The notes below the pieces were generated by a model. The model saw only the letters and a program-made list of their open reading frames with translations. It searched no databases and had not been told where the DNA came from. Source: Acholeplasma brassicae (GTDB taxonomy: Bacteria > Bacillota_I > Bacilli_A > Acholeplasmatales > UBA5453). Taken from it: a stretch of DNA of 64,000 nucleotides. The position numbers and the translations under genes were made by a program. The stretch's first letter is position 1; each line of letters begins with the position of its first letter. Positions 4,422-27,665 of this stretch are shown here, one piece after another. Location: NCBI RefSeq assembly GCF_000967915.1, contig NC_022549.1:531522-595521 (forward strand), given 5' to 3'.

Positions 4422-5780
4422 ATGGAAAATAGATTAAACACAGGTTCACAAATTGAATTAGAAATCAAAAAATTAGGAATTAATGGGGAAGGCATCGGCT
4501 ATTATGAAAAAAAAGCCGTTTTTGTTGATTACGCCCTACCAGGCGAATTAGCCTACGTTGAAATCACGGATGATTTTAAAACATATTATAAAGCCAAACT
4601 GATTAAAACCATCAAAGAAAGCAAAAGTCGTATCACGCCATTTTGTCCAATCTACTTTGAATGTGGGGGATGTCAAACCCAACACATGGCGTATGAAGAT
4701 ACGTTACTACATAAAAGAGACTTAATTCTACAAGCGATTAAACGCTACGTCAAAGTACCGTTTAATACCAAAAAAGTAGATAAAGCGATTGGGATGGATA
4801 ACCCAAGTCACTACCGTAATAAAGCAAGCTTACCAGTTCAATATAAAGATGGTAAGAACGTCATCGGTATGTATCAAGCAGGCACAAATCACTTAGTTGA
4901 TTTTAAGGACTGCCCAGTACAAGACAATGACATCAACAAGTTTTTCAACTTGATTTTAAATCAAATGGAAAAACGAAAAATGAATGCCTTTAATCGTGGA
5001 GGCAACATCCGTTTTATCGTCATTCGTAAAACCAAACTAACCAATGAAATCCAAATCTCATTCATCGTTAATGAATCCTCAGAAGACGTCATTGAACTTG
5101 GTAAATACATGAAAGAAAAATTTGTTGAAGTTAGCTCGGTTTATGAAGTCATTAACAAAGATGTTAAATCTAGAGAATTCTTCACTAATGATAAAACATT
5201 AATTGCTGGTAATGAAACTGTCACTGAAGAAATGAACGGTATTACATTTAAGCTAAAACCAGACGCATTCTTCCAATTAAACACCACACAAGCAGACAAA
5301 CTTTATCAACTGATTGTTGAAAAAGGCGAATTTACTAAAAACGACATCGTTGTGGATGCTTATAGTGGGATCGCACCGATTGCCTTGTACGTTGCACCGC
5401 ATGTGAAAAAAGTGTACGCCATTGAAGCATTAAAAGCATCACACGAAAGTGCGATTGAGACCATTAAAGAAAATAATCAAGAAAACATTATACCAATGCT
5501 AGGTGATGTTAAAGAAGTACTTAATAAGAACAGAAACATCAAACCTGATGTGATTGTTTTTGATCCACCAAGAACTGGCTTAGGCCGTGCAGTGACGGAC
5601 TTCTTATTAAAACATAAACCGAAGAAGATTGTTTATGCTTCATGTAACCCATCGACATTAGCTAAAGACCTAGATGAGTTATTAAAAGCTTATGAAGTTA
5701 AATCAATCACACCACTCGATATGTTTCCTTATACAAGTCACGTTGAGAGTGTGACATTACTTACATTAAAAACGGCATAA
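4422..5780 (+). CDS. rlmD: 23S rRNA (uracil-C5)-methyltransferase RlmD/RumA family
   Basis: N-terminal TRAM domain. Fe-S cysteine cluster CPIYFECGGCQ. SAM-methyltransferase motifs VFDPPRTGL and ASCNPSTL. Confidence 0.85.
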   Translation: MENRLNTGSQIELEIKKLGINGEGIGYYEKKAVFVDYALPGELAYVEITDDFKTYYKAKLIKTIKESKSRITPFCPIYFECGGCQTQHMAYEDTLLHKRDLILQAIKRYVKVPFNTKKVDKAIGMDNPSHYRNKASLPVQYKDGKNVIGMYQAGTNHLVDFKDCPVQDNDINKFFNLILNQMEKRKMNAFNRGGNIRFIVIRKTKLTNEIQISFIVNESSEDVIELGKYMKEKFVEVSSVYEVINKDVKSREFFTNDKTLIAGNETVTEEMNGITFKLKPDAFFQLNTTQADKLYQLIVEKGEFTKNDIVVDAYSGIAPIALYVAPHVKKVYAIEALKASHESAIETIKENNQENIIPMLGDVKEVLNKNRNIKPDVIVFDPPRTGLGRAVTDFLLKHKPKKIVYASCNPSTLAKDLDELLKAYEVKSITPLDMFPYTSHVESVTLLTLKTA

Positions 5781-5880
5781 CAAAGACATAAATAAAATAG
5801 AACAAGAAGCATTTACCCCTTAAAAACTGGGTTAAATGCTTCTTTTTATAATTTTTGTGTAATGTGTAAACATAAATATA
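5720..5880. repeat. Junction repeat copy 1: native 3' end of rlmD (…DMFPYTSHVESVTLLTLKTA*) plus its terminator. This is the prototype of the direct repeats found at about 16.9, 23.1 and 26.1 kb.
   Basis: Contains the sequence cacgttgagagtgtgacattacttacattaaaaacggcataacaaag…agaagcatttacccc…gggttaaatgcttcttttt. It recurs with 80–90% identity three more times. Confidence 0.8.
5806..5847 (+). terminator. Rho-independent terminator of rlmD
   Basis: Hairpin gaagcatttacccc/gggttaaatgcttc followed by a T run. Confidence 0.7.
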
Positions 5881-5908
5881 TGCTTTAAGCATATATTTAT
5901 GTTTACAC
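5864..5908. repeat. Perfect 45-bp palindrome gtgtaaacataaatatatgcttt|aagcatatatttatgtttacac at the island junction
   Basis: Two 22-nt arms are exact reverse complements. The motif TGT(G/T)AAACATA recurs at the other junction copies. Confidence 0.8.
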
Positions 5909-6006
5909 TAAGTACAGGTTTTTGGTATCAGTTCACATTCGAAGTACTATTATTTATTCATAATTCGTTCACATTATTATTGTATATTGATTATGAGGTA
6001 TTCAAC

Positions 6007-6933
6007 ATGAAAGTAAAAAAAATACGTAAAAGGTTTTTTCTAATTGTACTTATTTTATCCGTTTCAATATTCTTGCAAGGACTTAATCAAAATATAAAAG
6101 TCAATCAGTTAATAAGAGATTTTAAAGAACGAGGTATAGAGGGAGAGACAGTAACCATCTATTTTGATAATGGGATGGAAGAAATAAGAATGTATCACCC
6201 AGTCGAAAGAATCAATGAATATGAGAAAGCGGATACACGTAGCCTTTTTTATACAACCAAAGATGAACCATTTATTGGTAAAAAAGGGGATATATTTGTG
6301 ACTCAGGAATCACCTTTTCCAAACATATTCGGTTTTCATCAATTGATGAGTTTTTTTGTTGGAGGACACGCTGCACTGAATAATGGTAACAATCAATTCA
6401 TTGAAGCTGTAGGCTTCCCAAAAGATGATGAAAGTATCTTTGATATAATCAAAGACCCTTCAGATGGTACACATGATTATTCAGTTGGTGTAAGACAATC
6501 TTCTACTAATTATTGGATGTTGCCATATTTTAGAGGAGAGAACGACTTGTCATATCCTTATTATGGTTCTTATTACAGAGAAAAATTCGTAGTATTAAGA
6601 GTAAATAATATAGATGAAGAAAAACTGGATCAAACTATGTCATATGCCAATGAACATTTAGAAAATCGTTCATTATATAATTTCCTTTTCATTATGGACA
6701 CAAAAAACAAATTCTACTTTACTGATTTTATAAGTCGTTCATACAGATATGGGTTAAGTAAGAATAGTTCAGATAAAAACTATCCAAAAACCCTAAATGA
6801 TAATGGTTTTGTAACAACTGTTAATGATCTTATCTTATCAAAGGATACATATATTACTGCTTATGTAGAAAACACAGATGGAATTAGACACATCTACTAT
6901 TTAGAAGATGAAGGATTGACATCTAATGAATAG
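6007..6933 (+). CDS. Hypothetical secreted/membrane-anchored protein; first gene of the inserted island
   Basis: Start taken at MKVKKIRKRFFLIVLILSVSIF (signal/TM). The annotated upstream start at 5899 overlaps the palindrome. No recognisable motif. Confidence 0.4.
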   Translation: MKVKKIRKRFFLIVLILSVSIFLQGLNQNIKVNQLIRDFKERGIEGETVTIYFDNGMEEIRMYHPVERINEYEKADTRSLFYTTKDEPFIGKKGDIFVTQESPFPNIFGFHQLMSFFVGGHAALNNGNNQFIEAVGFPKDDESIFDIIKDPSDGTHDYSVGVRQSSTNYWMLPYFRGENDLSYPYYGSYYREKFVVLRVNNIDEEKLDQTMSYANEHLENRSLYNFLFIMDTKNKFYFTDFISRSYRYGLSKNSSDKNYPKTLNDNGFVTTVNDLILSKDTYITAYVENTDGIRHIYYLEDEGLTSNE

Positions 6934-6953
6934 TTTGATATAGTATAGATTAC

Positions 6954-6972
6954 ACCCCACCACGGGAGGGGT
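6954..6972. promoter_or_regulatory. Putative CsoR operator, GC-rich pseudo-palindrome ACCCCACCACGGGAGGGGT, 20 bp upstream of copZ
   Basis: An identical 19-mer recurs at 13716–13734 in front of csoR. The CCCC…GGGG inverted repeat is typical of CsoR sites. Confidence 0.55.
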
Positions 6973-6991
6973 AAAAAAGGAGGAATTACTT

Positions 6992-7219
6992 ATGGCAACG
7001 CTAATTTATAGAATCGGAGATATCCATTGCATCGGATGCATCAATCGCATTACTTTAGCTTTAAAATCAGCGGGAGCAATCAATGTTGATATTAATTTTT
7101 CAACACATATTGCAAAAGTATTGACTGAAGAGGAAAAACCCAATTCAAGTATGTATCTTGAAGCAATTGTTCAAACAGGATATCAAGTCGAATACTTAAC
7201 GACCATCGAAGAGGAATAA
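6992..7219 (+). CDS. copZ: Copper chaperone CopZ (HMA domain)
   Basis: 75 aa with a CIGC metal-binding motif in an HMA fold, immediately upstream of copA. Confidence 0.75.
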   Translation: MATLIYRIGDIHCIGCINRITLALKSAGAINVDINFSTHIAKVLTEEEKPNSSMYLEAIVQTGYQVEYLTTIEEE

Positions 7220-7223
7220 TAAA

Positions 7224-9698
7224 ATGTCGAGTAATATTAAATATCGAGTGAATGGTATGACTTGTGCTTCGTGTGTCAACCATGTTGAAAAAGCATTAAG
7301 AAAAGTTGAAGGGATAATTGATGTTTCTGTGAATTTAGCAACTGAAACTGCAACAATTCAATTTGATGATAACAGTTTTAGTTCAAATCTTGCAATGAAT
7401 GCTGTTAAGGGGATAGGATATGAACTCATTACTATCGAAAACAATCATAAGACTGTGACTGCCAGAGTTGATGGAATGAGTTGTGCAACATGCGCAAACA
7501 GTATTGATAATACACTGTTGAAGATGGATGGGATTATTGATGCTCATGTTAATCTCGCTACGGAGAAAGTTACCATTCAATATGATGATCGCGTCATTCG
7601 TTTTAGTGACATCAAACACCGTATCCAAAACATTGGATATAAGATTAGTCTCGAAGTAACAAAGGATGAAACGGTTGATCCTGATACACTCAAGATGAAT
7701 TCCGCTAAAAAAAGAGTTCAATTGAGTTCAACAATAACTATTTTGATGATGTCACTCATGCTGATTCACATGTTTGTTGTTAAAATTCCATTATACACTT
7801 GGATCATTGCCATACTGGGTTTCCCAGTCATATTTATCATTGGCCGTCACGTGCACAGAGGAAGTTATTACTCTCTTAAATCATTGAAACCGAATATGGA
7901 TGTCCTTGTGTCACTCGGATCTATTCCACCCTATCTCATCGGTCTCACAGGATTGTTTTTCCCAATCACAACATTTATCGAAATGGCAACAACAATTATG
8001 ACATTTCACTTGATTGGAAAATTCCTGGAAAGTAAGGCTAAAGGAAAAGCATCCCAAGCCATCAAAAAATTAATGGAACTAGGTGCGAAAACTGCACGCA
8101 TTTTAGTCGATGGCAATGAGATCGAAGTTTTAACGAATGAACTCAGTGTTAAAGATATCATGATTATTAGACCAGGCGAAAAAATACCAACAGACGGAAT
8201 GATTATTGAAGGTAAAAGTTTAATTGATGAATCGATTGCAACAGGTGAATCGATGCCGGTCAAAAAGCATGTGGGTGACAATGTCATCGGAGCAACCATT
8301 AATAAAGATGGCTTGCTCAAAGTAGAAGTTACTAAAGTTGGTAAAGAAACATTCTTATCTCAAGTTATTGAAATGGTTGAAGCTTGTCAGGGGTCCAAAG
8401 TGCCTATACAAGAATTTGCCGATAGAATCACATCCTACTTTGTGCCAGCAATTATGGTTTTAACAGTACTCACGTTCAGTTCTTTTTTAATTTTTCAAAA
8501 TTTCCATCTGAGTATCTTAGAGTATATGGGAACTATCTTACCTTGGATTAACACAGATCAAACTCCATTAACGTTAGCATTTATTACTGCGACTGCTGTG
8601 TTAGTTATCGCATGTCCATGTGCACTTGGACTTGGAACGCCTACAGCGTTAATGGTTGGTAGTGGTGTTGGCGCAGAAAAAGGTATTCTGATTCGCAACG
8701 GTGAAGCAGTTCAAACACTTAAGGATATCAAAGCCATTGCTTTTGATAAAACTGGCACGTTAACATATGGGAAACCCGTAGTGACTGACAAGCATGCTAT
8801 AGGTATAAGTGAACATCAAATGATGCATGTCGCTGGATCACTTGAAACAGGATCAGAGCATCCATTAGCAATGGCAATTATCGAAGATGCCAAAAAAGCC
8901 AATCAAAAACTTTCAAATCCTATAGATTTTGAAGCCATATCTGGCATGGGTATAAAAGGTATTCTAGATAATAAGACATATTATTTTGGTAACAGAAAAC
9001 TAATCAAATCGATTGGTCATTCTTATGATGGATTAGAATCAACGATGCAACAACTAGAAAATGAAGCTAAAACGGTGATGATTCTAGCAGATGATCTAGA
9101 GATACTTGGAATCATTGCTGTTGCAGATGCATTAAAACCTGAGGCTACATATGTTATTCGGGCAATTGAAAATCTTGGTATAACGACTGCTATGATTACG
9201 GGAGACAATTCAAGAACTGCTCTTGCAATTGCGAAAAAAGCTGGTATAACGCGAATTATATCTGATGTTTTACCCGAAGGAAAAGTAAGCGAAATTTCAA
9301 AACTACAAAGCGAGTTTGGATTAGTTGCAATGGTCGGTGATGGTATTAATGACGCACCAGCGCTAAAACAAGCTAATGTGGGTATTGCAATTGGAACAGG
9401 TACTGATATTGCAAAAGAAGCAGCAGATGTTACATTGGTCTCTGGTGAGTTACATACACTGCTTACGTCCATTCAGTTATCGAAAGCGATCTTTACAAAG
9501 ATTAAACAAAACTATTTTTGGGCATGGTTTTATAATGCGATTGCAATCCCATTTGCGATGTTAGGCTTATTACATCCAATGATTGGTGCTGCTGCAATGT
9601 CAATCAGCTCACTTAATGTTATCTATAATTCACTTAGACTCAAAAAGCATTCATTCTTAAAAGTTGATAAGGAGTTAGTACATGCACACTCATCATAA
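7224..9698 (+). CDS. copA: Cu(I)-translocating P1B-1-type ATPase
   Basis: Two N-terminal HMA domains (GMTCASC, GMSCATC). CPC motif, DKTGTLT and GDGINDAP. Confidence 0.9.
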   Translation: MSSNIKYRVNGMTCASCVNHVEKALRKVEGIIDVSVNLATETATIQFDDNSFSSNLAMNAVKGIGYELITIENNHKTVTARVDGMSCATCANSIDNTLLKMDGIIDAHVNLATEKVTIQYDDRVIRFSDIKHRIQNIGYKISLEVTKDETVDPDTLKMNSAKKRVQLSSTITILMMSLMLIHMFVVKIPLYTWIIAILGFPVIFIIGRHVHRGSYYSLKSLKPNMDVLVSLGSIPPYLIGLTGLFFPITTFIEMATTIMTFHLIGKFLESKAKGKASQAIKKLMELGAKTARILVDGNEIEVLTNELSVKDIMIIRPGEKIPTDGMIIEGKSLIDESIATGESMPVKKHVGDNVIGATINKDGLLKVEVTKVGKETFLSQVIEMVEACQGSKVPIQEFADRITSYFVPAIMVLTVLTFSSFLIFQNFHLSILEYMGTILPWINTDQTPLTLAFITATAVLVIACPCALGLGTPTALMVGSGVGAEKGILIRNGEAVQTLKDIKAIAFDKTGTLTYGKPVVTDKHAIGISEHQMMHVAGSLETGSEHPLAMAIIEDAKKANQKLSNPIDFEAISGMGIKGILDNKTYYFGNRKLIKSIGHSYDGLESTMQQLENEAKTVMILADDLEILGIIAVADALKPEATYVIRAIENLGITTAMITGDNSRTALAIAKKAGITRIISDVLPEGKVSEISKLQSEFGLVAMVGDGINDAPALKQANVGIAIGTGTDIAKEAADVTLVSGELHTLLTSIQLSKAIFTKIKQNYFWAWFYNAIAIPFAMLGLLHPMIGAAAMSISSLNVIYNSLRLKKHSFLKVDKELVHAHSS

Positions 9699-10611
9699 TA
9701 CAAAGCATCAACATCATCAATATATGATCATGATTCACATCTTTTTGATGGTCTTGTTTCTTGCGATAGGAAGCCAGAGTAGCGCCCCCTATTCAAGAGT
9801 AGCAATTGATTTTGGTAGCATTCAAATCTATTGGTATGCAATTTTCATTTTGACAGGAGTATTTATAGCGGCATATTATAGTCAAAATGAACTCAATCGT
9901 TTAAATTATCCTAAGGATATTATCTATGACGGTCTCTTAATTGGGTTACCTTTAGCAATTTTAGGAGCTAGACTTTACTATGTGTTATTTGATCCAATTC
10001 CACATTATAAGACGTTTCTAGACATAATCAATATTTCAAAAGGTGGCTTAGCGATTCATGGAGCAATCATTACCACTCTAGTTTTTGTACCTATTTTTTG
10101 TAAGATCAAAAAAATTAAATTATTGCCACTTATAGATACGTTGATGATAGGATTTCTCATTGGACAAATCGTTGGTAGATTTGGAAATTTCATGAACCAT
10201 GAAGCCTACGGACCAGCAATTCAATCAGCCTGGGTTATTGACATATTGCCTAAATTCATTGTTGAACAAATGACTCTAGGTAATGTTGTTCATCATCCTA
10301 CCTTTTTATATGAAGGTTTGTGGAACCTATCTATGCTTGTCACACTGATCATTTTAAAGAAGAAACGTTTGCTCAAAGTAGGTGAAAATCTTGGACTTTA
10401 TTTGATATGGTACGGTTTAGGTAGAGGAATAATCATTGAGCCGATGAGAGTCAATGGTGCATATGGAGATGCACTGATGATTATGGATATTCCGGTAAAT
10501 ATAATAATGTCACTCGTTTTTGTTGCTCTAGGTGTAGTGTATTTGTTTTTTAGCCGACTAAAGATGAAAAATCTTCCCTATCAAGTAGATTTAGTCAATG
10601 TAACATCATAA
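9682..10611 (+). CDS. lgt: Prolipoprotein diacylglyceryl transferase (Lgt) homologue; exact start uncertain
   Basis: Polytopic membrane protein carrying the Lgt signature GQIVGRFGNFMNHEAYG. Confidence 0.65.
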   Translation: MHTHHNTKHQHHQYMIMIHIFLMVLFLAIGSQSSAPYSRVAIDFGSIQIYWYAIFILTGVFIAAYYSQNELNRLNYPKDIIYDGLLIGLPLAILGARLYYVLFDPIPHYKTFLDIINISKGGLAIHGAIITTLVFVPIFCKIKKIKLLPLIDTLMIGFLIGQIVGRFGNFMNHEAYGPAIQSAWVIDILPKFIVEQMTLGNVVHHPTFLYEGLWNLSMLVTLIILKKKRLLKVGENLGLYLIWYGLGRGIIIEPMRVNGAYGDALMIMDIPVNIIMSLVFVALGVVYLFFSRLKMKNLPYQVDLVNVTS

Positions 10612-10621
10612 CAATCAATAA

Positions 10622-10660
10622 CGAAATGCCAGAGATCAAAATTGTTCTCTGGCATTTTTA
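10622..10660. terminator. Bidirectional intrinsic terminator between lgt (+) and copB (-)
   Basis: Hairpin aatgccagaga…tctctggcatt flanked by A and T runs. Confidence 0.6.
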
Positions 10661-10704
10661 TATAGAAAAAGTGAGTTTATTAGACTCACTCTCTTATGAT
10701 AATT

Positions 10705-12831
10705 CTATATTTTTAGCAAACGGGCGTTGATTGCTACAATGACTGTACTAAGTGACATTAATACTGCTCCAACTGCAGGACTTAATAGAATACCGATAGA
10801 ACTTAAAACACCAGCAGCTAAAGGAATAGCAATAATATTATATCCTGTTGCCCATACGAGGTTTTGAATCATTTTCTTATAGGTTGATTTAGAAAGTTTT
10901 ATGATATTTACGACATCCATTGGATTACTCTTAACAAGGATGACATCTGCAGTTTCAATCGCGACATCTGTACCTGCTCCAATAGCAATACCAAGATGTG
11001 CTTTTGCTAATGCTGGTGCATCATTGATGCCATCACCAGTCATAGCTACTAGACGTCCCTCTTTTGTGAGTGATTCAATCTTATCCGATTTTTGATCAGG
11101 TAAAACCTCTGCAAATACATTTTTTATACCTATTTTTTTGGCAACTTCATTTGCAACTTTTTGATTATCCCCTGTAAGCATGTATGAATCGATGCCCATT
11201 TCTTTAAGTGATTCAATCGCTTCCTGCGAGGTTTCTCGAATCATATCATTTAAAGCGATATAGCCGATCAAGTTTTTATCCTTAAGGACAAAAATAACAG
11301 TGTTACCTTGATTCGCTAATGTTTCATATGTGCTGTTATCAAATGGTATATTTAACTCTTTAATATAACCCGGACTCACAATTTCGACAGTTGATTGTTG
11401 TACTATACCAACAAGGCCTTTACCAGGAATTGCTTTGATGTCTCTACCTTTTTGAAGTTGTACTTTTCTATCTTTTGCTGCTCTAACTATCGCTTTTGCA
11501 ATAGGATGCTCAGATTCATTCTCGATGGCATAAGCTAATGATAGAAGTTCGTTTTCACTTAGACTAAGACCTTCGATTTTTGAAATTCCAAATTCTCCTT
11601 TGGTGAGTGTGCCTGTTTTATCAAATACAATCGTATTGATTTTACGTGCATTTTCGAAGTTAGCCCTATTTCGAATGAGTAAACCATGCTTTGCACCAAT
11701 GCTTGATGAAACGGCAGTAACGAGTGGCGTAGCCAACCCAAGTGCATGCGGGCATGAAATGATGACAACAGTAACTGCTCTTTCCATAGCGAATCCAATA
11801 TCTTTACCTAGTAACGTCCAAATTACAAATGTTGATACTCCGCCCAATAAAGCAACATAGAATAAGTATTTTGCTGCAATATCTGCTATTCTTTGTGTTT
11901 TTGAACGTGTTTTTTGAGCATCCCTGACGAGTTTAATGACTTGAGAGAGAAATGTCTCATCACCAATACGTGTCACTTTATACTTCAGTGAACCTTCAGC
12001 ATTGATTGAGCCACCTATTAATTCGTCACCAGGTGATTTATCGACAGGAACGGATTCACCGGTTAACATGGATTCGTTTACAGATGACTTTCCTTCTATG
12101 ATTTTTCCGTCAATAGGAACCTTTTCTCCAGGTCTGACTAATAAAATCATACCTACTTTAACTTGAGTGATTGATATATCATTGATGTGACCATCTTGAT
12201 CGATGACGTGAGCTTCTTCAGGCATCAGTTTTAAGAGTTCTTCTAAAGCTCTTGATGCACCTAATACAGACTTCATTTCAATCCAGTGACCGAGTAGCAT
12301 GATTGAGATGAGTGTCGATAACTCCCAGAAAAAGTCTTGACCGGTTTGGAATATGACGGTATATGCACTATAGATATATGAGACGACAATAGCAAGGCCA
12401 ATGAGAGACATCATGGCTGGTGCTTTCTGTTTCATTTCTTCAAATGTACCCTTGAAAAATGGGGATCCTCCATAAATAAATAACACCGTACTGAGTATCA
12501 AAAGAATGTATAAGTCTCCAGTAAATCTTAGATTTAATTCAAGGAATTCTTGAATCATAGGTGATAGCGTTAAAATTGGAACTAATAATATTAGTGATAT
12601 CAAAAATCTTCTTTTAAAATCTTTAACCATCATAGCATGATGGTCGTGGTGATTATCATGATTTTGATGTTCAGTATGCTTTTGACTATCTTTGTGATGG
12701 TGATGATGAATTTCTTCATGGTGGTGATGATGTGCATCTTGTGTTTCATGATTCATGCCTACTTTGTTGTGATCGATATGCTCGTTTTTATTATCTTTGT
12801 GATGATGATGATTGTGTTCATGCTTGTCCAT
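10705..12831 (-). CDS. copB: Cu(II)/Cu-translocating P1B-3-type ATPase with a His-rich N-terminal tail
   Basis: N-terminus is extremely rich in H and HH runs. CPH transmembrane motif (SCPHALGLATP), DKTGTLT and GDGINDAP. Confidence 0.8.
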   Translation of the reverse strand: MDKHEHNHHHHKDNKNEHIDHNKVGMNHETQDAHHHHHEEIHHHHHKDSQKHTEHQNHDNHHDHHAMMVKDFKRRFLISLILLVPILTLSPMIQEFLELNLRFTGDLYILLILSTVLFIYGGSPFFKGTFEEMKQKAPAMMSLIGLAIVVSYIYSAYTVIFQTGQDFFWELSTLISIMLLGHWIEMKSVLGASRALEELLKLMPEEAHVIDQDGHINDISITQVKVGMILLVRPGEKVPIDGKIIEGKSSVNESMLTGESVPVDKSPGDELIGGSINAEGSLKYKVTRIGDETFLSQVIKLVRDAQKTRSKTQRIADIAAKYLFYVALLGGVSTFVIWTLLGKDIGFAMERAVTVVIISCPHALGLATPLVTAVSSSIGAKHGLLIRNRANFENARKINTIVFDKTGTLTKGEFGISKIEGLSLSENELLSLAYAIENESEHPIAKAIVRAAKDRKVQLQKGRDIKAIPGKGLVGIVQQSTVEIVSPGYIKELNIPFDNSTYETLANQGNTVIFVLKDKNLIGYIALNDMIRETSQEAIESLKEMGIDSYMLTGDNQKVANEVAKKIGIKNVFAEVLPDQKSDKIESLTKEGRLVAMTGDGINDAPALAKAHLGIAIGAGTDVAIETADVILVKSNPMDVVNIIKLSKSTYKKMIQNLVWATGYNIIAIPLAAGVLSSIGILLSPAVGAVLMSLSTVIVAINARLLKI

Positions 12832-12843
12832 AATTTGCCTCCT

Positions 12844-13700: not shown

Positions 13701-13715
13701 AGTTTTCCTCCTTGA

Positions 13716-13734
13716 ACCCCACCACGGGAGGGGT
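13716..13734. promoter_or_regulatory. Second copy of the putative CsoR operator (ACCCCACCACGGGAGGGGT), directly upstream of csoR
   Basis: Exact 19-bp identity with 6954–6972. Lies in the divergent promoter region between csoR (-) and the SHOCT gene (+). Confidence 0.55.
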
Positions 13735-13808
13735 ATACAAGTACATTATATCATGGTAATATAAAAATGCAATAATATTTTTACATTCATTTTATATTCA
13801 TAATTGTT

Positions 13809-14165: not shown

Positions 14166-14166
14166 T

Positions 14167-19757: not shown

Positions 19758-20126
19758 ATGACTAAAAAATTTAATTCAATTGAAAGATGTGACTGCAATG
19801 TAATTCATGAGGATATTGTAAATCAAGTTAGAGATAAAATGCCTCAAGAAGAAAGCCTTTATGATCTAGCAGAATTATTTAAAGTATTTGGAGATTCAAC
19901 ACGAATCAGGATATTATGGGCTTTACATGAAGCTGAAATGTGTGTTTGTGATATCGCTGTATTACTTAACATGACACAATCAGCAATTTCCCATCAGCTG
20001 AGAGTCTTAAAACAAGCTAATTTAGTGAAAAACAGAAAAGAAGGCAAAGTAGTATATTATTCATTAGTTGATGATCATGTAAGAGAAATATTTGGCCAAG
20101 GTCTAATTCATATCAACGAGAAGTAG
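19758..20126 (+). CDS. cadC: ArsR/SmtB-family Cd/Zn-responsive repressor
   Basis: wHTH with the metal-sensing motif AEMCVCDI and the DNA-recognition helix SHQLRVL. Confidence 0.8.
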   Translation: MTKKFNSIERCDCNVIHEDIVNQVRDKMPQEESLYDLAELFKVFGDSTRIRILWALHEAEMCVCDIAVLLNMTQSAISHQLRVLKQANLVKNRKEGKVVYYSLVDDHVREIFGQGLIHINEK

Positions 20127-20271
20127 TAATGCGGTAGAATAGAATATTTTTTGAAGATATTTGGGCATATATTTAAGTCTTCATTTCAAATGAGCAATGC
20201 TTCAAGAAAATTTGAAAAAGACTTGTAGTATTCAAAATAAAATTACAAATAATATTTAGGAGGATTTAATA

Positions 20272-20493
20272 ATGAAAAAGAAATTTATACTTGAAGGTTT
20301 AGATTGTGCAAATTGCGCGGCAAAAATGGAAAAGGCTATTAATGAGCTTGATGGAGTAAAAGAAGCTACTGTTAACTTTATGACCACAAAACTCGTTATT
20401 GATGGTGAGGATGAAAAAATGCCAACAATAATAGCAGAGGCCGAAAAAATAGTTAAAAAAATCGAACCCGATACAACTATGAAAAAGGCTTAA
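20272..20493 (+). CDS. Stand-alone HMA metal-binding domain protein
   Basis: GLDCANCAAKMEKAI motif. Has its own stop, and the next gene has its own RBS. Confidence 0.7.
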   Translation: MKKKFILEGLDCANCAAKMEKAINELDGVKEATVNFMTTKLVIDGEDEKMPTIIAEAEKIVKKIEPDTTMKKA

Positions 20494-20508
20494 AGGAGGC
20501 TATTTAGT

Positions 20509-22353
20509 ATGACAAAACGACTATGGCGAATAATTATTGGTGCAGCCGTGTTAGCTACAGCAGTATTGCTTAATTTAAATAACGAATGGTTACAGATTGC
20601 TCTCTTTATAATAAGTTACATTATTGTAGGTGGAGATGTTGTAAAAAGAGCTGTAAAAAATATTTTTAAAGGTCAAGTTTTCGATGAAAACTTTTTAATG
20701 AGTATTGCAACAATTGGTGCATTTTTTATTGGTGAGTATCCTGAAGGTGTTGCAGTTATGCTGTTTTATCAAGTTGGAGAACTGTTTCAAAGCTATGCAG
20801 TTGGCAAGTCGAGAAAGTCAATTGCAAGCCTTATGGATATTCGACCAGATTATGCAAATGTTAAAAAAGGTGATGAACTTGTCAAAGTTGACCCAGATGA
20901 AGTACAAATTGGAGATATTATTGTAATTAAAGCAGGAGAAAAAATTCCTCTTGATGGCAAGGTAATTGAGGGAAGTTCAATGATTGATACATCGGCACTA
21001 ACAGGCGAATCTGTTCCTCGTGAAGTAGAAGTTGGAAGTGATATCCTAAGTGGGTGCATCAACATTAATGGGGTTATTACAGCAGAGGTTACCAAGGAAT
21101 TTGGAGAATCTACTGTAAGTAAAATTCTTGATTTAGTTGAAAATGCAAGTAGTAAAAAATCCAATTCAGAACAATTTATTACGAAGTTTGCGAGATATTA
21201 TACACCGGTTGTGGTTATAATTGCAGTTTTTCTAGCTATTATACCGCCTCTTGTTATAGACGGGGCGACTTTTAGTGATTGGATATATAGAGCACTAGCA
21301 TTCCTTGTGGTATCCTGTCCGTGTGCTTTAGTTATTTCAATTCCTTTGAGTTTCTTCGGTGGAATAGGTGGAGCCTCAAAAAAAGGTATTTTAGTCAAGG
21401 GGAGTAACTATTTAGAGGCATTAGCAGAAACTGAAATTGTTGTTTTTGATAAAACTGGAACACTAACGAAAGGTGTATTTAATGTACAGGAAATTCATCC
21501 AGAAGGAGTTTCCAAAGAAGAGCTACTAGAATTAACTGCATATGTTGAAAGCTATTCCAATCATCCGATTTCACTTTCACTGAAACGTGCATATGGTAAA
21601 GAAATAGACAATGGACGTATTTCAGATGTAGAAGAGATATCAGGTCATGGTGTTATTGCAACAGTAGATGGCAAAAAGGTTATGGCAGGAAATATCAAAC
21701 TTATGAAAATGATGGATATCCCTTATTTCAAGGGAGAGCTGATCGGTACTGTTGTACATGTTGCTGTTAATAACAAATATATAGGTTACATTGTAATTGC
21801 CGATGAGGTAAAGGAAGATTCAGCACAAGCAATCAAGGAACTTAAGGCAGCTAGTATTAAACAAACAGTTATGTTGACAGGTGATAATAAAAGTGTTGGT
21901 TCAAAAGTTGCTAAAGAGCTTGGTCTTGATAAGGTTTATGCAGAACTGTTGCCAGCAGACAAAGTTGATAAACTAGAAGAATTATTTTCGCAAAAATCTA
22001 AAAAAGGTAAACTTGCTTTTGTTGGTGACGGAATCAATGATGCACCTGTATTAGCTCGTGCAGACATTGGAATAGCAATGGGTGGTTTAGGTTCTGATGC
22101 GGCCATTGAAGCTGCTGATATTGTAATTATGACTGATGAGCCATCGAAAATAGCTACTGCAATGAAGATTTCTAAAAAGACACTAAAAATTGCACATCAA
22201 AACATAGTATTTGCAATTGGAATAAAAATAATTGTTCTTATTTTGAGTGCTTTTGGAATAACTACTATGTGGGCAGCAATATTTGCAGATGTAGGTGTAA
22301 CTATCATTGCAGTATTAAATGCTTTTAGAGCTTTGAATGTAAAGAATCTATAA
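20509..22353 (+). CDS. cadA: Cd/Zn-type P1B-2 ATPase lacking a fused HMA domain
   Basis: CPC (VSCPCALVISIP), DKTGTLT, GDGINDAP. Sits with cadC upstream. Confidence 0.85.
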   Translation: MTKRLWRIIIGAAVLATAVLLNLNNEWLQIALFIISYIIVGGDVVKRAVKNIFKGQVFDENFLMSIATIGAFFIGEYPEGVAVMLFYQVGELFQSYAVGKSRKSIASLMDIRPDYANVKKGDELVKVDPDEVQIGDIIVIKAGEKIPLDGKVIEGSSMIDTSALTGESVPREVEVGSDILSGCININGVITAEVTKEFGESTVSKILDLVENASSKKSNSEQFITKFARYYTPVVVIIAVFLAIIPPLVIDGATFSDWIYRALAFLVVSCPCALVISIPLSFFGGIGGASKKGILVKGSNYLEALAETEIVVFDKTGTLTKGVFNVQEIHPEGVSKEELLELTAYVESYSNHPISLSLKRAYGKEIDNGRISDVEEISGHGVIATVDGKKVMAGNIKLMKMMDIPYFKGELIGTVVHVAVNNKYIGYIVIADEVKEDSAQAIKELKAASIKQTVMLTGDNKSVGSKVAKELGLDKVYAELLPADKVDKLEELFSQKSKKGKLAFVGDGINDAPVLARADIGIAMGGLGSDAAIEAADIVIMTDEPSKIATAMKISKKTLKIAHQNIVFAIGIKIIVLILSAFGITTMWAAIFADVGVTIIAVLNAFRALNVKNL

Positions 22354-22496
22354 ACTATTTTTCCTATTCACCCCTTGAATGATACCGATAATTGACGATA
22401 CAATCAAGGGGTATTTTTTAATTTAAAAACTATAAATGAAAATTGGTTGGGATTTACCTTGAATTAAATGGTTTTAAAGATATGGAGGTTATGTAA

Positions 22497-22976
<480 letters not shown>

Positions 22977-23009: not shown

Positions 23010-23245
23010 ATGTTGGATATGTTTCCAACTACGAGTGTGGATATGTCCACCTTAACCATAGGGGTTGAGAACTCAGTTTTGATAGCTATCAAGGCAACTC
23101 GAAACACGTTGAGAGTGTGACATTACTTACATTAAAAACGGCTTAACAAAGCCATTCATATAATAGAACAAGAAGCATCAAATTCTTTAAATAGGATTAA
23201 ATGCTTCTTTTTTTGTTTTATGCGTAATGTGGAAACATCAAAAGA
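23010..23245. repeat. Junction repeat copy 3 (degenerate rlmD 3' end plus terminator)
   Basis: Contains gatatgtttccaactacgag…cacgttgagagtgtgacattacttacattaaaaacggcttaacaaagccattcata…agaagcatcaaattc…gattaaatgcttc and gtaatgtggaaacatc. Confidence 0.8.
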
Positions 23246-23351
23246 TGCATTAAACATATATTTTGCTTTAGCAAGGAAACACTCATCCGCCAATAATATA
23301 TTGATTTTCTCCAGATAATAGCATATAATAAAATTAAGTGGAGGAAATAAT

Positions 23352-23942
23352 ATGATTGTTACAACATTAAACTTAAAAGAAAAGTATAAGAGTTATACGG
23401 ATATTAATGGCAAAATCAAAAGAGATATTGATAATGGTTTCTTATTTCCTCTTGTACGAGGCATTTATGAAACAGAAAGCTCTGTTGATGGTTTTTTACT
23501 TGCTTCATATATTTATGGACCATCCTATTTATCTTTCGAATATGCACTTTCATATCATAATCTCATTCCTGAAAGAGTTGTTGTTTATACGAGTGCTACA
23601 TTCAACAAACGAAAAAGTAAGGTTTATCAAAATCATTTCGGACTTTATACCTATAGAGATGTTCCAAATGCTGCATTTCCTTATTCAGTAAAAGCTTATG
23701 AAGAAGACGGGTATGCTTGCTTTATAGCTAGCCCAGAAAAAGCACTATGTGATTTACTATATAACAGAAAACCAGTAACAAGTATCAAAGAATTAAAGAG
23801 ACTGCTTTTTGAGGATTTACGGGTAAATAAAGATATGTTTGAACAACTTAACTTTGATGAAATACTATTTTTATCTGATAAATACATATCGAACAATATG
23901 AAGTACTTAAGAAAATACATTGAAAGTGAGTATATGAAATGA
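23352..23942 (+). CDS. abiEi: AbiEi-like type IV toxin–antitoxin antitoxin (wHTH)
   Basis: Conserved LVRGIYE motif. Sits immediately upstream of, and overlapping, an AbiEii-type nucleotidyltransferase gene. Confidence 0.55.
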   Translation: MIVTTLNLKEKYKSYTDINGKIKRDIDNGFLFPLVRGIYETESSVDGFLLASYIYGPSYLSFEYALSYHNLIPERVVVYTSATFNKRKSKVYQNHFGLYTYRDVPNAAFPYSVKAYEEDGYACFIASPEKALCDLLYNRKPVTSIKELKRLLFEDLRVNKDMFEQLNFDEILFLSDKYISNNMKYLRKYIESEYMK

Positions 23943-24820
23943 CAATTATAGAGCAAATGATTAATAAGTATAATCCCATAACATTAGAAGATAAGAAGCA
24001 TGCAATAAAAGAAGTTTTACAAGAAGTGGTGTTGGCTGGTCTTTCTAAAACTGACTTTTTTAATCACGCTGCTTTTTATGGTGGAACAGCTTTAAGGATT
24101 TTTTACGGAATGGATAGATTTAGTGAGGATTTGGACTTTAGCTTACTTGTATCAGATGATACTTTCGATATAGATAAATATTTTAAACCAATAAGTGACG
24201 CTGTAAACTCACTTGGACTCAATTTTGAAGTTTCCAAAAAGGATAAGACGCTAAACTCAAATATTGATTCAGCTTTCATCAAAGGTAATACAAAAGAAAC
24301 CTTGATTACGATTTATTCAAGTTCATCAGATTCTAGACTTATTATTCATAACGAAAAGATTATCATCAAGTTTGAAGTTGATGTAAATCCCCCACTATAC
24401 GCACAGACAGAAATTAAGTTTCGATTATTACCATTCCCATACCAAGTTCGAGTTTATGATGCCTCATCGTTATTTGCTGGCAAAATTCATGCTGTGATTG
24501 CTAGAAGTTGGAAGAACCACATAAAGGGCAGAGATTTGTATGATTATGTCTATTATTTAAGTTTAGATACAAAAGTGAATTTAAAACATTTAGAAGCTAG
24601 ATTGAAACAAACTAAAACAATTGACGAAAACATCAAATTGTCAAAGGATTTTTTAATTAATATATTGGAAAAACGATTCGATGAGATTGATTATGATATT
24701 GCGAAATCAGACGTTAGACCATTTATTAAGGATCAGGCTACCTTAGACCTTTGGAGCAATAATTTTTTTAAATCCATTACGGAACAAATTAAAGTCGATT
24801 TGGAGGAAACTAATGATTAA
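23939..24820 (+). CDS. abiEii: AbiEii/AbiGii-family nucleotidyltransferase toxin (DUF1814)
   Basis: YGGTALRIFYGMDRFSEDLDFS nucleotidyltransferase motif. 4-nt overlap with the upstream gene. Confidence 0.7.
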   Translation: MTIIEQMINKYNPITLEDKKHAIKEVLQEVVLAGLSKTDFFNHAAFYGGTALRIFYGMDRFSEDLDFSLLVSDDTFDIDKYFKPISDAVNSLGLNFEVSKKDKTLNSNIDSAFIKGNTKETLITIYSSSSDSRLIIHNEKIIIKFEVDVNPPLYAQTEIKFRLLPFPYQVRVYDASSLFAGKIHAVIARSWKNHIKGRDLYDYVYYLSLDTKVNLKHLEARLKQTKTIDENIKLSKDFLINILEKRFDEIDYDIAKSDVRPFIKDQATLDLWSNNFFKSITEQIKVDLEETND

Positions 24821-25883
24821 ACCTAAGAAACTGAAAAAAGGTGATAAAGTAGCTATTGTTAGCCTGTCTTCAGGCATTTTAGGTGAACCTGAAGTAAAAC
24901 ATCAATTAGAACTAGGTATAAGAAGATTAAAAGAACTTGGTCTTGAACCTGTTTTTATGCCCAATACGCTAAAAGGTTTAAACTTTATAAAAAACAATCC
25001 CAATTATAGAGCAGACGATTTAATGCTTGCATTTAAAGATCCAACTATAAATGGTATTATTTGTGCAATAGGTGGTGATGATACTTATAAAACGATACCA
25101 TATCTCATGAATGAGGAGTTTAAAAAAACAGTACATTCAAATCCGAAAGTTTTTGTGGGGTTTTCAGATTCAACCAATAATCATTTAATGCTAAATAAAT
25201 TGGGATTAGTTACTTATTACGGGTTAAATTTTTTATCAGATCTTTGTGAACTACAAAAGGAAATGATTCCATATACACGAAAAAGCTACGAGAGACTGTT
25301 TATAAACGATGAATCATTTGAAATAGAATCTAGTCCGAAATGGTACTTGAATAGATCAAACTATGATGTTGATCAAATGTTTGTGCCACTTAACGAAATA
25401 GATGAAGACAAAGGGCATGAGTTTTTAAATGGATCGGGTGTCATTGATGGTGTTTTTTGGGGTGGTTGTCTAGAAAGTATCTATGATTTGTATACAAGTG
25501 AGAGGTATCTAGATCAAAGGCATATTTATAATCGTTATGGGTTAATTCCTAACAATGATTATTTTTCCGACAAAATCATATTCCTTGAAACAAGTGAAGA
25601 AAAACCAACGCCAGAAAAGTTTCATAGAATGCTATACTTTTTAATCGAAGAAGGTGTCATAAGTCGTGCCAAGTGTTTATTAGTTGGTAAACCATACGAT
25701 GAGGTCTATTATCACGAATATAAAGAAGTATTATTGAAGATATCAAATGATATGGGTTTACCCATAGTATATAACTTAAACTTTGGACATGCACTTCCAA
25801 GAACCATTATTCCTTACGGGATTAAAGGGAAAGTTGATTTTTATAACAAGTCAATTTCAGTAGTAGAAAAAATATTTGAATAG
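24813..25883 (+). CDS. S66-family serine peptidase (LD-carboxypeptidase / MccF-like)
   Basis: N-terminal LKKGDKVAIVSLSSG and a nucleophile motif VGFSDSTN. Overlaps the abiEii stop by 8 nt. Confidence 0.65.
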   Translation: MIKPKKLKKGDKVAIVSLSSGILGEPEVKHQLELGIRRLKELGLEPVFMPNTLKGLNFIKNNPNYRADDLMLAFKDPTINGIICAIGGDDTYKTIPYLMNEEFKKTVHSNPKVFVGFSDSTNNHLMLNKLGLVTYYGLNFLSDLCELQKEMIPYTRKSYERLFINDESFEIESSPKWYLNRSNYDVDQMFVPLNEIDEDKGHEFLNGSGVIDGVFWGGCLESIYDLYTSERYLDQRHIYNRYGLIPNNDYFSDKIIFLETSEEKPTPEKFHRMLYFLIEEGVISRAKCLLVGKPYDEVYYHEYKEVLLKISNDMGLPIVYNLNFGHALPRTIIPYGIKGKVDFYNKSISVVEKIFE

Positions 25884-25934
25884 TGATTGATATCTACTAT
25901 ATTTTATAACATAAGTAAATGTTTGTTGTGTTGA

Positions 25935-26190
25935 CCAAGTATACGATATAATTTATGTTGCTTTGGTATTATGATCAAGTTTCAACCTAATAAAGTTAAA
26001 CATATTTTGGCTCATTTTGATGTTTCTTCAATACATACAAGGTTGATTTTGCAAGCAATCTAGTCGTATCAACGCACGTAGAGAGTGTGACATTGCTTAC
26101 ATTAAAAACGGATTAACAAAGCCATTCGTACAATAGAACAAGAAGCATCTAACCCCCTAAATAGTAATTAAATGCTCCTTTTTTTAGATG
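25935..26190. repeat. Junction repeat copy 4: about 125-bp inner arm plus degenerate rlmD 3' end plus terminator
   Basis: Contains cacgtagagagtgtgacattgcttacattaaaaacggattaacaaagccattcgta…agaagcatctaaccccc…taattaaatgctcc. The inner arm is repeated at 27535–27665. Confidence 0.8.
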
Positions 26191-26359
26191 TTCAATCGTT
26201 TATAGAATGTAAAAAAAATCTAAAAACGAATAACTCGTATAGTTATAACGTGACTAAATAATGTCGAAAACTATCCTCGAAGACTTGACGTGACTATTTT
26301 TGTGTGATAATATGATGATGAGGATAAAAAAAACAAATTATTAGTCACGAGGTGATAAT

Positions 26360-27409
26360 GTGAATAAACTGCCCTTTAATATAGATTTAAATGAAATAGA
26401 AATATTAAAAGAACTCAACACTGCGAATCATCATATAGGCGAGTTAAAAGGTGTACTTAGAATACTTCCAAACTCTGGAATTGTTTTGAGTTTAATTAAT
26501 CTTAGTGAGTCAAAAGACTCATCAGCTATCGAAAATATCATTACGACCTATGATGAAATATTCAAAGAGATTGTATCAAAGACACCTATTGGAGGAAAAC
26601 CTAAAGAAGTCATAAATTACAAGCATGCAATCGATCATGGATTATTGATCATGAGACAAAAAGGATATATCAGTACAAATATACTTGTAGACATTCAAAA
26701 TGTCATCGAGCCGAATAAAGGTGGCATTAGAAAACTTCCTGGAACAGTAATCATTAACGATAAAACCAATGAAGTTGTACACACACCGCCACAAAATGAA
26801 ACAGAGATTCGTGAACTCATGCATAATCTTGAGTTATTCATCAATCAAAATAATGATTACGACCCATTGATTCAAATGGCTTTAATCCACTTCCAATTTG
26901 AGAGTATTCATCCATTTTATGATGGAAATGGTAGAACAGGCAGAATATTAAATATACTGTATTTAGTGTTAAAAGAAAAGTTGTCTGAACCGATACTCTA
27001 TTTAAGCAAGTACATTATTGAAAACAAGTCACAATATTACGATCTTTTGAAAAAATGCAATGATGACATATTAAATATAAAAGATTTTGTTGTATACATT
27101 TTAAAAGGTATTTCTGAAACTTCTAAACATACAATCAATCTCATATTAAGAATCAATCAATCGATAGAGTTAACAAATGAAATGCTGAAAAAACGATTGC
27201 CAGATATTTATCGTTATGAGATAGTCGAGCATTTGTTTTCTTACATGTATACAAAAAATGAGTTTTTTAGAGAAAACTTGAATATATCTAGAGCAACTGC
27301 AACTAAGTACTTAAAGCTGCTTGAAAAAGAAGGCTTCATTGTTTCTGAGCAATTAGGCAAAGAAGTAATCTATAAAAATGTCCAATTGCTAAATCTTGTT
27401 AAGGAATAA
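26360..27409 (+). CDS. fic: Fic-family AMPylase/adenylyltransferase
   Basis: Canonical motif HPFYDGNGRTGR. N-terminal SSAIEN matches the (S/T)xxxE(G/N) auto-inhibitory motif. Confidence 0.8.
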   Translation: MNKLPFNIDLNEIEILKELNTANHHIGELKGVLRILPNSGIVLSLINLSESKDSSAIENIITTYDEIFKEIVSKTPIGGKPKEVINYKHAIDHGLLIMRQKGYISTNILVDIQNVIEPNKGGIRKLPGTVIINDKTNEVVHTPPQNETEIRELMHNLELFINQNNDYDPLIQMALIHFQFESIHPFYDGNGRTGRILNILYLVLKEKLSEPILYLSKYIIENKSQYYDLLKKCNDDILNIKDFVVYILKGISETSKHTINLILRINQSIELTNEMLKKRLPDIYRYEIVEHLFSYMYTKNEFFRENLNISRATATKYLKLLEKEGFIVSEQLGKEVIYKNVQLLNLVKE

Positions 27410-27534
27410 AATCATCAATGAGCAAAAGGTGAATTGGTTATGGTGTATTAGGTAGGGCTTAGGAACATATGTTTAGAAATGATTTACATGATAAACGATC
27501 AATTGACGAAAAACATGAGAAGTATCACTAATTG

Positions 27535-27665
27535 ATACTGAATTAGGTTGCTTTGGTTTTTTGATGGTTTTCAAGCCTGTAAAGGCAAATATATATCGGT
27601 CGATTTTGATGTTACTGTGATACACAAAAGGTTCAATTCACAAGCAGTTCGGTCGTATCAGCGGT
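27535..27665. repeat. Partial junction repeat (inner arm only), homologous to 25935–26070
   Basis: ggttgctttggttttttgatggttttcaagcctgtaaagg…caagcagttcggtcgtatcagcgg matches gttgctttggtattatgatcaagtttcaacctaataaag…caagcaatctagtcgtatcaacgcacg. Confidence 0.6.

Follow-up and report, generated by a model that had tools for sequence, protein, structure and literature searches.

We analysed a 64,000-nucleotide stretch of Acholeplasma brassicae DNA (contig NC_022549.1, positions 531,522–595,521; hereafter the window), in which four cargo-bearing units, islands A to D, lie one behind the other at the 3′ end of rlmD (rumA), the gene for the 23S rRNA U1939 methyltransferase. RlmD scored 353.6 bits against the NCBIfam equivalog model TIGR00479 (cutoff 183.55). 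Comparison with metagenomic and viral loci (L numbers below) indicates that the region is most probably an array formed by accretion, at a site used for attachment by a family of temperate phages whose hosts are Acholeplasma-like bacteria.

Repeats and islands behind rlmD

A repeat search gave a single four-copy direct family. The copies start in register at 5739, 16959, 23105, and 26075 (spacings of 11220, 6146, and 2970 nt) and are pairwise 81–88% identical over approximately 110 nt; the number of chance matches expected for the core 38-mer was 0 (100 shuffles). Each copy encodes a mimic, in frame, of the 13 codons with which rlmD ends, namely HVESVTLLTLKTA-stop in copies 1 and 3, HVESVTLLSLKTA-stop in copy 2, and HVESVTLLTLKTD-stop in copy 4 (consensus HVESVTLL(T/S)LKT(A/D)-stop). 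The terminator hairpins were strong in copies 1, 2, and 3 (z = −6.5, −9.3, and −5.0, respectively) and decayed in copy 4 (z = −1.0).

To the right of a fixed point, copies 1–3 have about 200 nt in common, comprising the 13-codon mimic, the terminator, a AATGTGGAAACAT motif, and an AT-rich palindrome. To its left, copies 2, 4, and 5 have about 80–110 nt in common that are unrelated to rlmD. The right-hand segment, the P′ arm, is the left end of a unit, and the left-hand segment, the P arm, is the right end of a unit. In an nhmmer search of the window, the matches of the P′ profile were confined to the four copies, and the P profile matched 25965–26076 and 27559–27663, with a weak match at 16877–16959. 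No further copies of either arm were found elsewhere in the 64 kb, which indicates that the repeats are not a scattered terminator family; an earlier note on this DNA had named such a family, if spread genome-wide, as one finding that would refute it. The match at 27559–27663 is a fifth, left-arm-only copy, 72% identical to the arm left of copy 4.

The four repeats with their hairpins and the fifth, inner-arm-only copy had all been described in that note, and they are real. Its description of them as copies of the rlmD terminus holds for the in-frame mimic, through which each unit regenerates the gene end as the note had claimed; the repeats are, however, really the left P′ arms of the elements, and the sequence left of copies 2, 4, and 5 is a right P arm. 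According to the junction alignment, the terminal 13 codons of the present rlmD (5739–5780) derive from the P′ arm of the first island.

Five junctions (J1–J5) bound the four units (Table 1). The division into a copper module, a cadmium module with serine recombinase pseudogenes, an AbiE/S66 module, and a Fic segment agrees with Pfam, with the exception of AbiEi: the 196-aa open reading frame (ORF) upstream of AbiEii (23352..23942) had no Pfam match, so that this label follows from position only. At J5, the sole survivor is a 76% remnant of the post-stop segment (27690–27722), and this junction is probably the displaced original rlmD end (attR). The locus L027 is a 97% identical strain with the same layout of copy 4, Fic, and copy 5.

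Table 1. Coordinates of the array in the window (P and P′, element arms; B, host arm; LSR, large serine recombinase).
Feature	Position	Strand	Basis or remark
rlmD (rumA), 23S rRNA U1939 methyltransferase	4422..5780	+	Pfam TRAM + tRNA_U5-meth_tr
J1, attL-type: host B arm, CA, P′ arm	5739..5740	+	symmetry 7/22, the background level
P′ arm copy 1: mimic, terminator, AATGTGTAAACAT motif, 45-nt hairpin	5739..5932	+	nhmmer E = 4.5e-46
Island A, copper module, 11,220 bp	5739..16958	+	Pfam of ORFs
Phage-type P arm, right end of island A	16877..16958	+	near-identical to P arm before P′-LSR in L105, L106, L125
J2 core CA (16959–16960) and P′ arm copy 2: mimic, terminator, GTGGAAACAT and GGGTAAACAT motifs	16959..17182	+	nhmmer E = 1.8e-50
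Island B: P′, dead LSR, second unrelated LSR fragment, cadCA, degenerate P arm	16959–23104		
Decayed phage LSR integrase	17220..18313	−	tblastn 58% identity; Pfam Recombinase + Zn_ribbon_recom only
Second, unrelated LSR fragment	18485..19324	+	34% identity to first; head-to-head with first
Cadmium module of island B: ArsR/CadC, 73-aa ORF without annotation, CadA-like P1B ATPase, zf_CopZ/BFD protein	19758..22976	+	
Strongly degenerate P arm, right end of island B	23075..23104	+	17/30 matches with the type-1 arm (visual count)
J3 core CA and P′ arm copy 3	23105..23297	+	nhmmer E = 3.7e-46; P side degenerate
Island C	23105–26074; cargo 23352..25883	+	196-aa ORF, AbiEii, S66 LD-carboxypeptidase
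Type-1 P arm, right end of island C	25965..26074	+	nhmmer E = 3.5e-27
J4 core CA and P′ arm copy 4: mimic, decayed terminator	26075..26277	+	symmetry 14/22
Island D	26075–27663; cargo Fic gene 26360..27409	+	Pfam
Remnant of 259-aa second gene of Fic cassette, remainder deleted	27412..27530	+	translation compared with ORF of L001
Type-1 P arm, right end of island D	27559..27663	+	nhmmer E = 3.6e-19
J5, decayed distal junction: core CA and HVE codons lost	27664..27722	+	symmetry 4/22

Junction anatomy and the adjoining recombinase

Each junction consists of a conserved P arm, the dinucleotide CA, and a P′ arm, which holds the in-frame mimic of the rlmD end, the terminator, and GTGGGAACATA-like motifs. 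The CA is the start of the His codon in the conserved HVE motif, 13 codons before the rlmD stop. Metagenome contigs were scanned with a P-arm pattern, which gave 31 loci; the P arm was nearly invariant in these loci and ended in ...TCAACG, a conservation that is inflated by the pattern-based selection. Of the 30 loci extending as far as the junction, 29 have the CA directly after the P arm. Beyond the CA, the flanks diverge immediately (CGTTGA, TATTGA, TGTTGA, GATTGA, GGTTGA, and others), and most of them read as H[VI]E... ends of differing rlmD genes; the P arm was joined to more than 10 different host rlmD ends. The host B arms upstream of P′ likewise vary, and their divergence reaches as far as this CA. 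Compared on the left side, a B arm and a P arm have nothing but CA in common, and several attR flanks diverge directly after it. Since the P-side flanks diverge after the CA and the B arms diverge before it, CA is the one dinucleotide that host and element share on either side, and this is the crossover core that the earlier note had hoped to define by aligning the copies.

The P-CA-P′ junction is a 46-bp imperfect palindrome. The consensus of the commonest junctions is AAGCAATatggttttTTCAACG-CA-CGTTGAAActatcacATTGCTT, and AAGCAATATGGTTTTTTCAACG-CA-CGTTGAAACTATCACATTGCTT is one example. The symmetry of the P-CA-P′ junctions was 14–18/22, compared with a window background of 6.0 ± 2.1, and a symmetry of at least 14 was reached by just 0.07% of random positions. 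The attL-type (B-CA-P′) junctions gave 4–7/22. A dyad attP of about 40–50 bp, a much less symmetric attB, and a host and an element that need share just the crossover dinucleotide characterize the sites of LSRs, and all of these features were found here. At the sequence level, an attP with dyad symmetry, a central dinucleotide that is not palindromic, and an attB of weak symmetry together form the signature of an LSR attP, and an LSR would be the enzyme that catalyzes recombination at the CA.

Both LSR fragments in the window lack the catalytic domain and keep only the Recombinase and Zn_ribbon domains, which identifies them as pseudogenes. The first remnant is frameshifted and aligns to residues 196–557 of a 572-aa protein, and its 3′ end adjoins P′ copy 2. 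The two pseudogenes lie head-to-head, at 18263–19324 on the plus strand and 17220–18313 on the minus strand, which suggests that a second, cadCA-bearing LSR element entered the first integrase gene or underwent recombination with it. Intact homologues (P0007 and the LSRs of L002, L101, and L102) possessed all three domains (Resolvase, Recombinase, and zinc ribbon) or matched the PHROG family phrog_95.

In every informative locus, the gene adjoining P′ was an LSR, and a link between such an enzyme, whose participation the earlier note had proposed, the P′ arm, and rlmD is seen in independent genomes. The order rlmD, P′, and intact LSR was found in L107, L111, and L108, whose RlmD proteins are 63%, 44%, and 34% identical to that of the window, respectively. 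A P arm followed by CA-P′ and an intact LSR was found in L104, L105, L106, L109, L116, and L124, and a P-CA-P′ junction followed by an LSR in L036–L038 and L010. Apart from L036–L038 and L010, these loci are IMG/VR viral contigs, and their intact LSRs, of 572–585 aa, lie directly after the P′ arm. In L035, the LSR is intact and convergent with rlmD, and a terminator and three GTGG(G/A)AA(C/T)ATA motifs separate it from the 3′ end of that gene. The LSR is located at the left end of the element on the opposite strand and is transcribed towards rlmD; in L104, it ends 8 nt past the P′ arm, approximately 210 nt from the core. Neither rlmD nor the core was found near more distant viral LSR homologues (35–50% identity, 60 loci), which indicates that the specificity for rlmD appears limited to a closer clade (at least 55–60% mutual identity).

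Many LSR copies outside the window are cut short at residues 74–88. The homology stops at residue 74, 77, or 86 in L036–L038, L018, and L010, where the catalytic-serine segment is absent, and in L018 a P′ arm cut at position 111 is followed at once by an LSR fragment on the opposite strand. Five LSR gene calls (P0001, P0003, P0004, P0005, and P0014) start at Met89, of which at least P0003 simply begins at a contig end. The recurrence of the truncation may mean that the integrase gene itself contains a second hotspot, for recombination or for insertion.

A GGnAACATA(t/a) motif (e.g., AATGTGGAAACATAT and CAGTGGGAACATATTTTAGT) recurs in constant orientation, with 1–3 occurrences per P′ arm and 1 per P arm. 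In the window, the motif lies at approximately 5866–5878, 17083–17095, 17185–17197, and 23231–23243, and about 85 nt left of each core in the P arms; in L010, L035, and L036, it is located between the terminator and the LSR stop. These positions are outside the ~46-bp core needed by an LSR, and the motif could serve to bind a host factor or one that controls directionality. The end of P′ copy 1 contains a 45-nt near-perfect palindrome, GTGTAAACATAAATATATGCTTTAAGCATATATTTATGTTTACAC, at 5864–5908, with weaker forms in copies 2 and 3. An Rfam search of the whole array gave nothing above threshold; the sub-threshold matches were spurious (miRNA) ones to the hairpin at 5864–5908 and one Histone3 stem-loop match at 23135–23178.

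A second P′ arm type (ACTTGTTATATACTTGACA..., with the terminator GCCATCAGATGACC...GATGGCTTTTTTT) accompanies a 572-aa LSR (L002 at ~11440 and ~18890; L039). In L002, the terminator of this type is duplicated 7.4 kb apart around genes for an ABC transporter, DegV, TetR, a patatin, and a glycosyltransferase, a layout that suggests an insertion of cargo that separated the integrase from the rlmD mimic. As a candidate empty site, the rlmD end of L002 was rejected. The sequence downstream of this end is found again behind P arms in L010, L019, and L021, where other genes follow it, and its terminator is also present beside the LSR of L002 itself; it is this second type of P′ arm.

Temperate phages and integrase-less cassettes

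The LSRs matched the PHROG integrase family phrog_95 with E values of 1e-124 to 1e-130. A divergent cI-like repressor, an anti-repressor, a replication initiator, and a tyrosine-integrase-like gene were found beside them, and the viral contigs that bear them are approximately 17–52 kb long. The autonomous element is a temperate phage of roughly 40–50 kb, located directly behind rlmD in hosts whose RlmD is 34–63% identical to that of the window. In L125, tail-protein genes reach the P arm, followed by CA, P′, and the LSR, an order that places an intact attP between the late region and the integrase gene. The P arms of L125, L105, L106, and L109 are nearly identical to the P arm at copy 2 of the window (16877–16958).

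The 52-kb contig UViG_3300002219_000849 (L109, L117, and L151) contains two different rlmD-type LSRs, one near each end. Read in the orientation of rlmD, it consists of P′, LSR2, ~46 kb of phage, a P arm, CA, P′, and LSR1, and it probably represents tandem prophages at rlmD. Loose core patterns were also applied to viral contigs for the far ends of the phages; beyond the known phages and one new contig (L146), they gave chance matches that lack arm similarity.

Most metagenome loci contained no recombinase between P′ and P, and integrase-less cassettes framed by these arms were present in more than 30 metagenome contigs. These units were 1.7–6.7 kb long, with a Fic gene and a 259-aa gene, cadC-cadA, an AAA ATPase, MerA, or PadR as cargo; overall, the small integrase-less units span 1.6–11 kb and consist of two arms and cargo only. 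A 3.4-kb cadCA unit was 98–100% identical between L012 and L013. The flanks of the two loci were 50–61% identical on the left (rlmD) side and 35–45% identical on the right side, and the identity breaks exactly at the CA on both sides. These breaks in unrelated hosts, together with the restriction of the arms to the array, bear out the serial site-specific integration at the 3′ end of rlmD that had been proposed from the window.

The cassettes occur in varied company. The cadCA unit is placed behind the P arm of another unit in L020. The Fic unit follows rlmD in L001, an ATPase unit in L010, the histidine-kinase unit in L019, and S66 in both the window and L027, whereas in L124 it is part of a phage. 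In L124 (reverse complement, 7281–9992), a Fic cassette composed of P′, Fic, a 262-aa gene, and P lies between tail-fibre-like late genes and the P′-LSR of the phage, which indicates that this phage genome carries two attP-like junctions. Arrays of at least two units were common (L008, L010, L018, L027, and L124). In loci with a single cassette, an in-frame RlmD C-terminus, such as ...VDMFSQTY/HVETVTLLTLK-stop in L013, is regained when the B arm is fused to the displaced B′ end, and these rebuilt ends, as reconstructions, can substitute for the empty site. The arrangement of cassettes and phages suggests that a phage LSR may move integrase-less cassettes in trans and that the cassettes may travel docked next to attP in phage genomes. 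These integrase-less, arm-framed cassettes are the most interesting part of the feature.

Insertion sequence genes were present beside or inside several arrays, namely IS1595-like ORFs of 299–302 aa in L023 and L026, a TnpB-like C-terminus in L015, and an rve transposase in L036. They are probably secondary insertions that add to the decay of the units.

Origin of the array and relation to known elements

Several observations weigh against an array built by phage LSRs. One scan each of genome contigs and metagenome contigs gave no empty rlmD site, excised circles were not seen either, and exact-protein look-ups of the RlmD, flotillin, and HAD proteins of the window for sister strains or empty sites returned no record. 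The window holds no intact LSR, and many homologues are 5′-truncated. No complete prophage with both ends joined to host DNA was seen, and the P arm at the phage's right end is documented by L125, L109, L124, and one 52-kb contig read as tandem prophages. The selection of the metagenome loci by a P-arm pattern also has to be kept in mind. The conserved arms (P, ~110 nt; P′, ~200 nt) are far longer than an LSR needs, and these long arms and the recurring, unexplained GGnAACATA motifs may indicate that a further protein or function is involved. Moreover, homologous recombination between arms of 81–88% identity could also reshuffle units.

This last process might even have built most of the array, through the ~200-nt P′ repeats, unequal crossing-over, or transformation from related arrays, with a recombinase placing the first element only. 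The arms, over 110–200 nt, are long enough for RecA, the colinearity between the window and L019 spans the whole copy-2 junction and ends at the end of P′ (17184) rather than at the CA, and every LSR copy in the window is dead. We nevertheless consider this origin unlikely. The cassette boundaries in unrelated hosts fall exactly at the CA, where flanks of 35–61% identity offer no homology for recombination; the P arm is joined to more than 10 different host rlmD ends; and the palindromic core is kept at the P-CA-P′ junctions. The same core, a palindrome of 46 bp around a non-palindromic dinucleotide, makes it very improbable that these are classical tyrosine-integrase islands at a gene 3′ end, in which the long repeat would be the segment of identity between attP and attB, with serine recombinases carried as passengers. 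Such islands typically have direct repeats that rebuild the target's 3′ end, a tyrosine-integrase-like gene is present in the early region of the L101 prophage, and the L035 element carries one ~7 kb from its LSR. However, Pfam found no tyrosine recombinase domain in the window array (all ORFs except two small unscanned ones), none was seen next to any junction, host and element have only CA in common on the left side, and it is an LSR that adjoins P′ in every informative locus.

A generic terminator or REP-like family that resembles the rlmD end by chance and is unrelated to mobility would account for the terminator-like hairpin in each copy. We regard this explanation as practically negligible, because no copies occur outside the array in the 64 kb, the in-frame 13-codon mimic is kept in each copy, and in other genomes the arms occur only at rlmD ends, at cassette junctions, or beside an LSR. 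A further idea, that the P arm is the decayed 3′ end of an integrase gene in the style of the streptococcal rumA integrative and conjugative elements (ICEs), was rejected: no recombinase ORF lies upstream in the 31 loci, the cargo varies, and the frame in phase with rlmD has stops.

In the phage-based accretion that we favor, the phages would integrate by their LSR into rlmD at the CA of the HVE His codon. The right (P′) arm of attP runs through the mimic, the terminator, and the GTGGGAACATA-like motifs to the 3′ end of the integrase gene, and integration would leave rlmD intact by means of the in-frame mimic. Because P′ imitates the displaced host B′ half-site (both encode HVExxxLL), the rlmD-side junction B-CA-P′ should again be attB-like, so that the next element can enter at the same place. 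The downstream junctions (P-CA-P′ or P-CA-B′) would be attP-like. The integrase alone could then excise any run of units that starts at rlmD, and phages with two junctions, such as L124, might pick up or drop off cassettes.

In the window, island B, with its P′ arm and dead integrase, is what is left of a prophage or LSR element, and islands A, C, and D are integrase-less units; no recombinase was found among the scanned ORFs of island A. Decay rises with distance from rlmD, in that the terminators are strong in copies 1–3, weak in copy 4, and gone at J5. This gradient indicates that the array probably grew from the rlmD side, where the new units would have entered. The array is now probably immobile without a helper phage.

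We tentatively extend this scheme, as a possibility rather than an expectation, to a distinct kind of mobile cassette. In such a cassette, the cargo would be framed by phage arms, moved in trans by the phage LSR, docked beside attP for transfer, and exchanged at rlmD between alternative junctions, so that the rlmD end of Acholeplasma-like bacteria would serve as an integron-like, phage-serviced platform. The exchange would work because P′ imitates the host half-site and an occupied site therefore stays an attB. The long arms and the GGnAACATA motifs might have an extra function, such as directionality control or packaging.

The earlier note pointed out that the target here is rlmD. This target is not new, since rumA is a published hotspot for serine-integrase ICEs, integrative and mobilizable elements (IMEs), and prophages, tandem insertions included, in streptococci, enterococci, Clostridioides difficile, and Roseburia, and the start of these elements resembles the rumA end; examples are the vanG elements, ICE-r, ICESp2905, CTn5, and the S. 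suis phi-Ssu..._rum phages (PMC4120198, PMC4701971, PMC5357655, PMC7168690). Neither the target nor the principle is therefore new. The elements described here resemble the rumA elements in the gene, in the HVE-coding stretch near its 3′ end, in the LSR, in a host range across divergent rumA genes, in tandem or composite insertions, and in resistance cargo, and the left end of an S. suis _rum phage, according to its record, likewise bears GTGGG-type motifs together with a rumA end and a terminator.

They differ from the streptococcal elements in several respects. The reported streptococcal crossover is a GA in the 11th codon, counted from rumA's 3′ end (PMC4120198), whereas junction comparison and the dyad centre place the crossover here at a CA in the 13th codon from the end, 4 nt upstream of the GA, which is present but lies inside the P′/B′ half-site. 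The streptococcal integrase gene is located at the element's right end, co-directional with rumA, with attR inside the gene (PMC4701971), and in the S. suis _rum phage, the LSR comes after the lysis genes, on the same strand as rumA; in the present elements, the integrase gene is at the left end, faces rlmD, and ends before the core is reached. With the P′ arm, the RlmD C-terminus is regained in frame and a terminator is provided, in contrast to the streptococcal insertions, which alter the C-terminus. The hosts also differ in being Acholeplasma-like. The LSRs were ~38–40% identical to the best named phage LSRs, which include those of S. suis _rum prophages but no reference of Ser_4, a cluster defined at an integrase identity of at least 40% (PMC5357655); the _rum LSRs were no closer than those of phages with other names. 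A 520-aa relative from Streptococcus parasuis was rejected as a rumA element, since it is located in a multi-LSR module and not at rumA. Abundant integrase-less cassettes with both arms are not described for rumA in the rumA literature cited here.

With these findings, the rumA/rlmD hotspot of streptococci and clostridia also reaches into the wall-less Acholeplasma-like bacteria, where a different solution is used at the same target: CA in place of GA, the opposite direction of the integrase, and a gene end restored in frame. The small integrase-less cassettes carry metal-resistance, abortive-infection/toxin, and Fic genes. Their near-identity in unrelated hosts indicates that a phage integrase appears to spread non-phage cargo. 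The 46-bp attP and the conserved, nearly universal attB in a non-essential gene are of possible interest for genome engineering with serine integrases.

The likeness to staphylococcal cassette chromosome (SCC) elements at rlmH/orfX, which the earlier note had stressed, holds in part. As in SCC, the units are bounded by direct repeats that contain the end of the target gene, the arrays include recombinase-less units, and metal and other resistance genes are carried. The target is rlmD and not rlmH, however, and the autonomous partner is a tailed temperate phage. SCC direct repeats are ~15–20 nt long; those described here are longer (~110–200 nt). The NCBIfam CcrB, CcrC, and CcrA models scored 26–136 bits against cutoffs of 700–900, CcrB being the best (65–136; cutoff 900). 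The LSRs are therefore not Ccr recombinases, and the comparison with SCC is an analogy only.

Site-specific accretion and cis-mobilizable elements (CIMEs) have also been described, as for ICESt1/ICESt3 at fda in Streptococcus thermophilus, and tandem IME/ICE arrays have been reviewed (PMC5704250). CIMEs are likewise integrase-less, att-flanked units, tandem at one site, that are mobilized in cis or in trans by the integrase of a related element; they depend on tyrosine integrases and conjugative helpers, whereas the enzyme here is an LSR and the helper a phage. The cassettes further resemble integron cassettes as small cargo units bounded by imperfect palindromic sites whose recombinase is supplied from outside. 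Unlike integrons, the array has no IntI among its scanned ORFs and no attI or common promoter; its att sites are double-stranded and of LSR type, and its units have their own regulators and terminators.

Island A contains genes for a 344-aa ORF of unknown function, CopZ, CopA, Lgt, a His-rich P1B ATPase (−), CueP (−), CsoR (−), a SHOCT protein, a response regulator, and a histidine kinase. The second P1B ATPase (10705–12831, −) has a very His-rich N-terminus (HHHHKD and HHHHHEEIHHHHHKD), which explains the short direct repeats at 12680–12825. Two 26-nt copies (92% identical) of ACCCCACCACGGGAGGGGTA... lie at 6954–6979 and 13716–13741, upstream of copZ/copA and of csoR, respectively. The pair resembles CsoR operators, and we presume that the two copies are candidate CsoR binding sites; if they bind CsoR, the copper island carries its own regulatory circuit.

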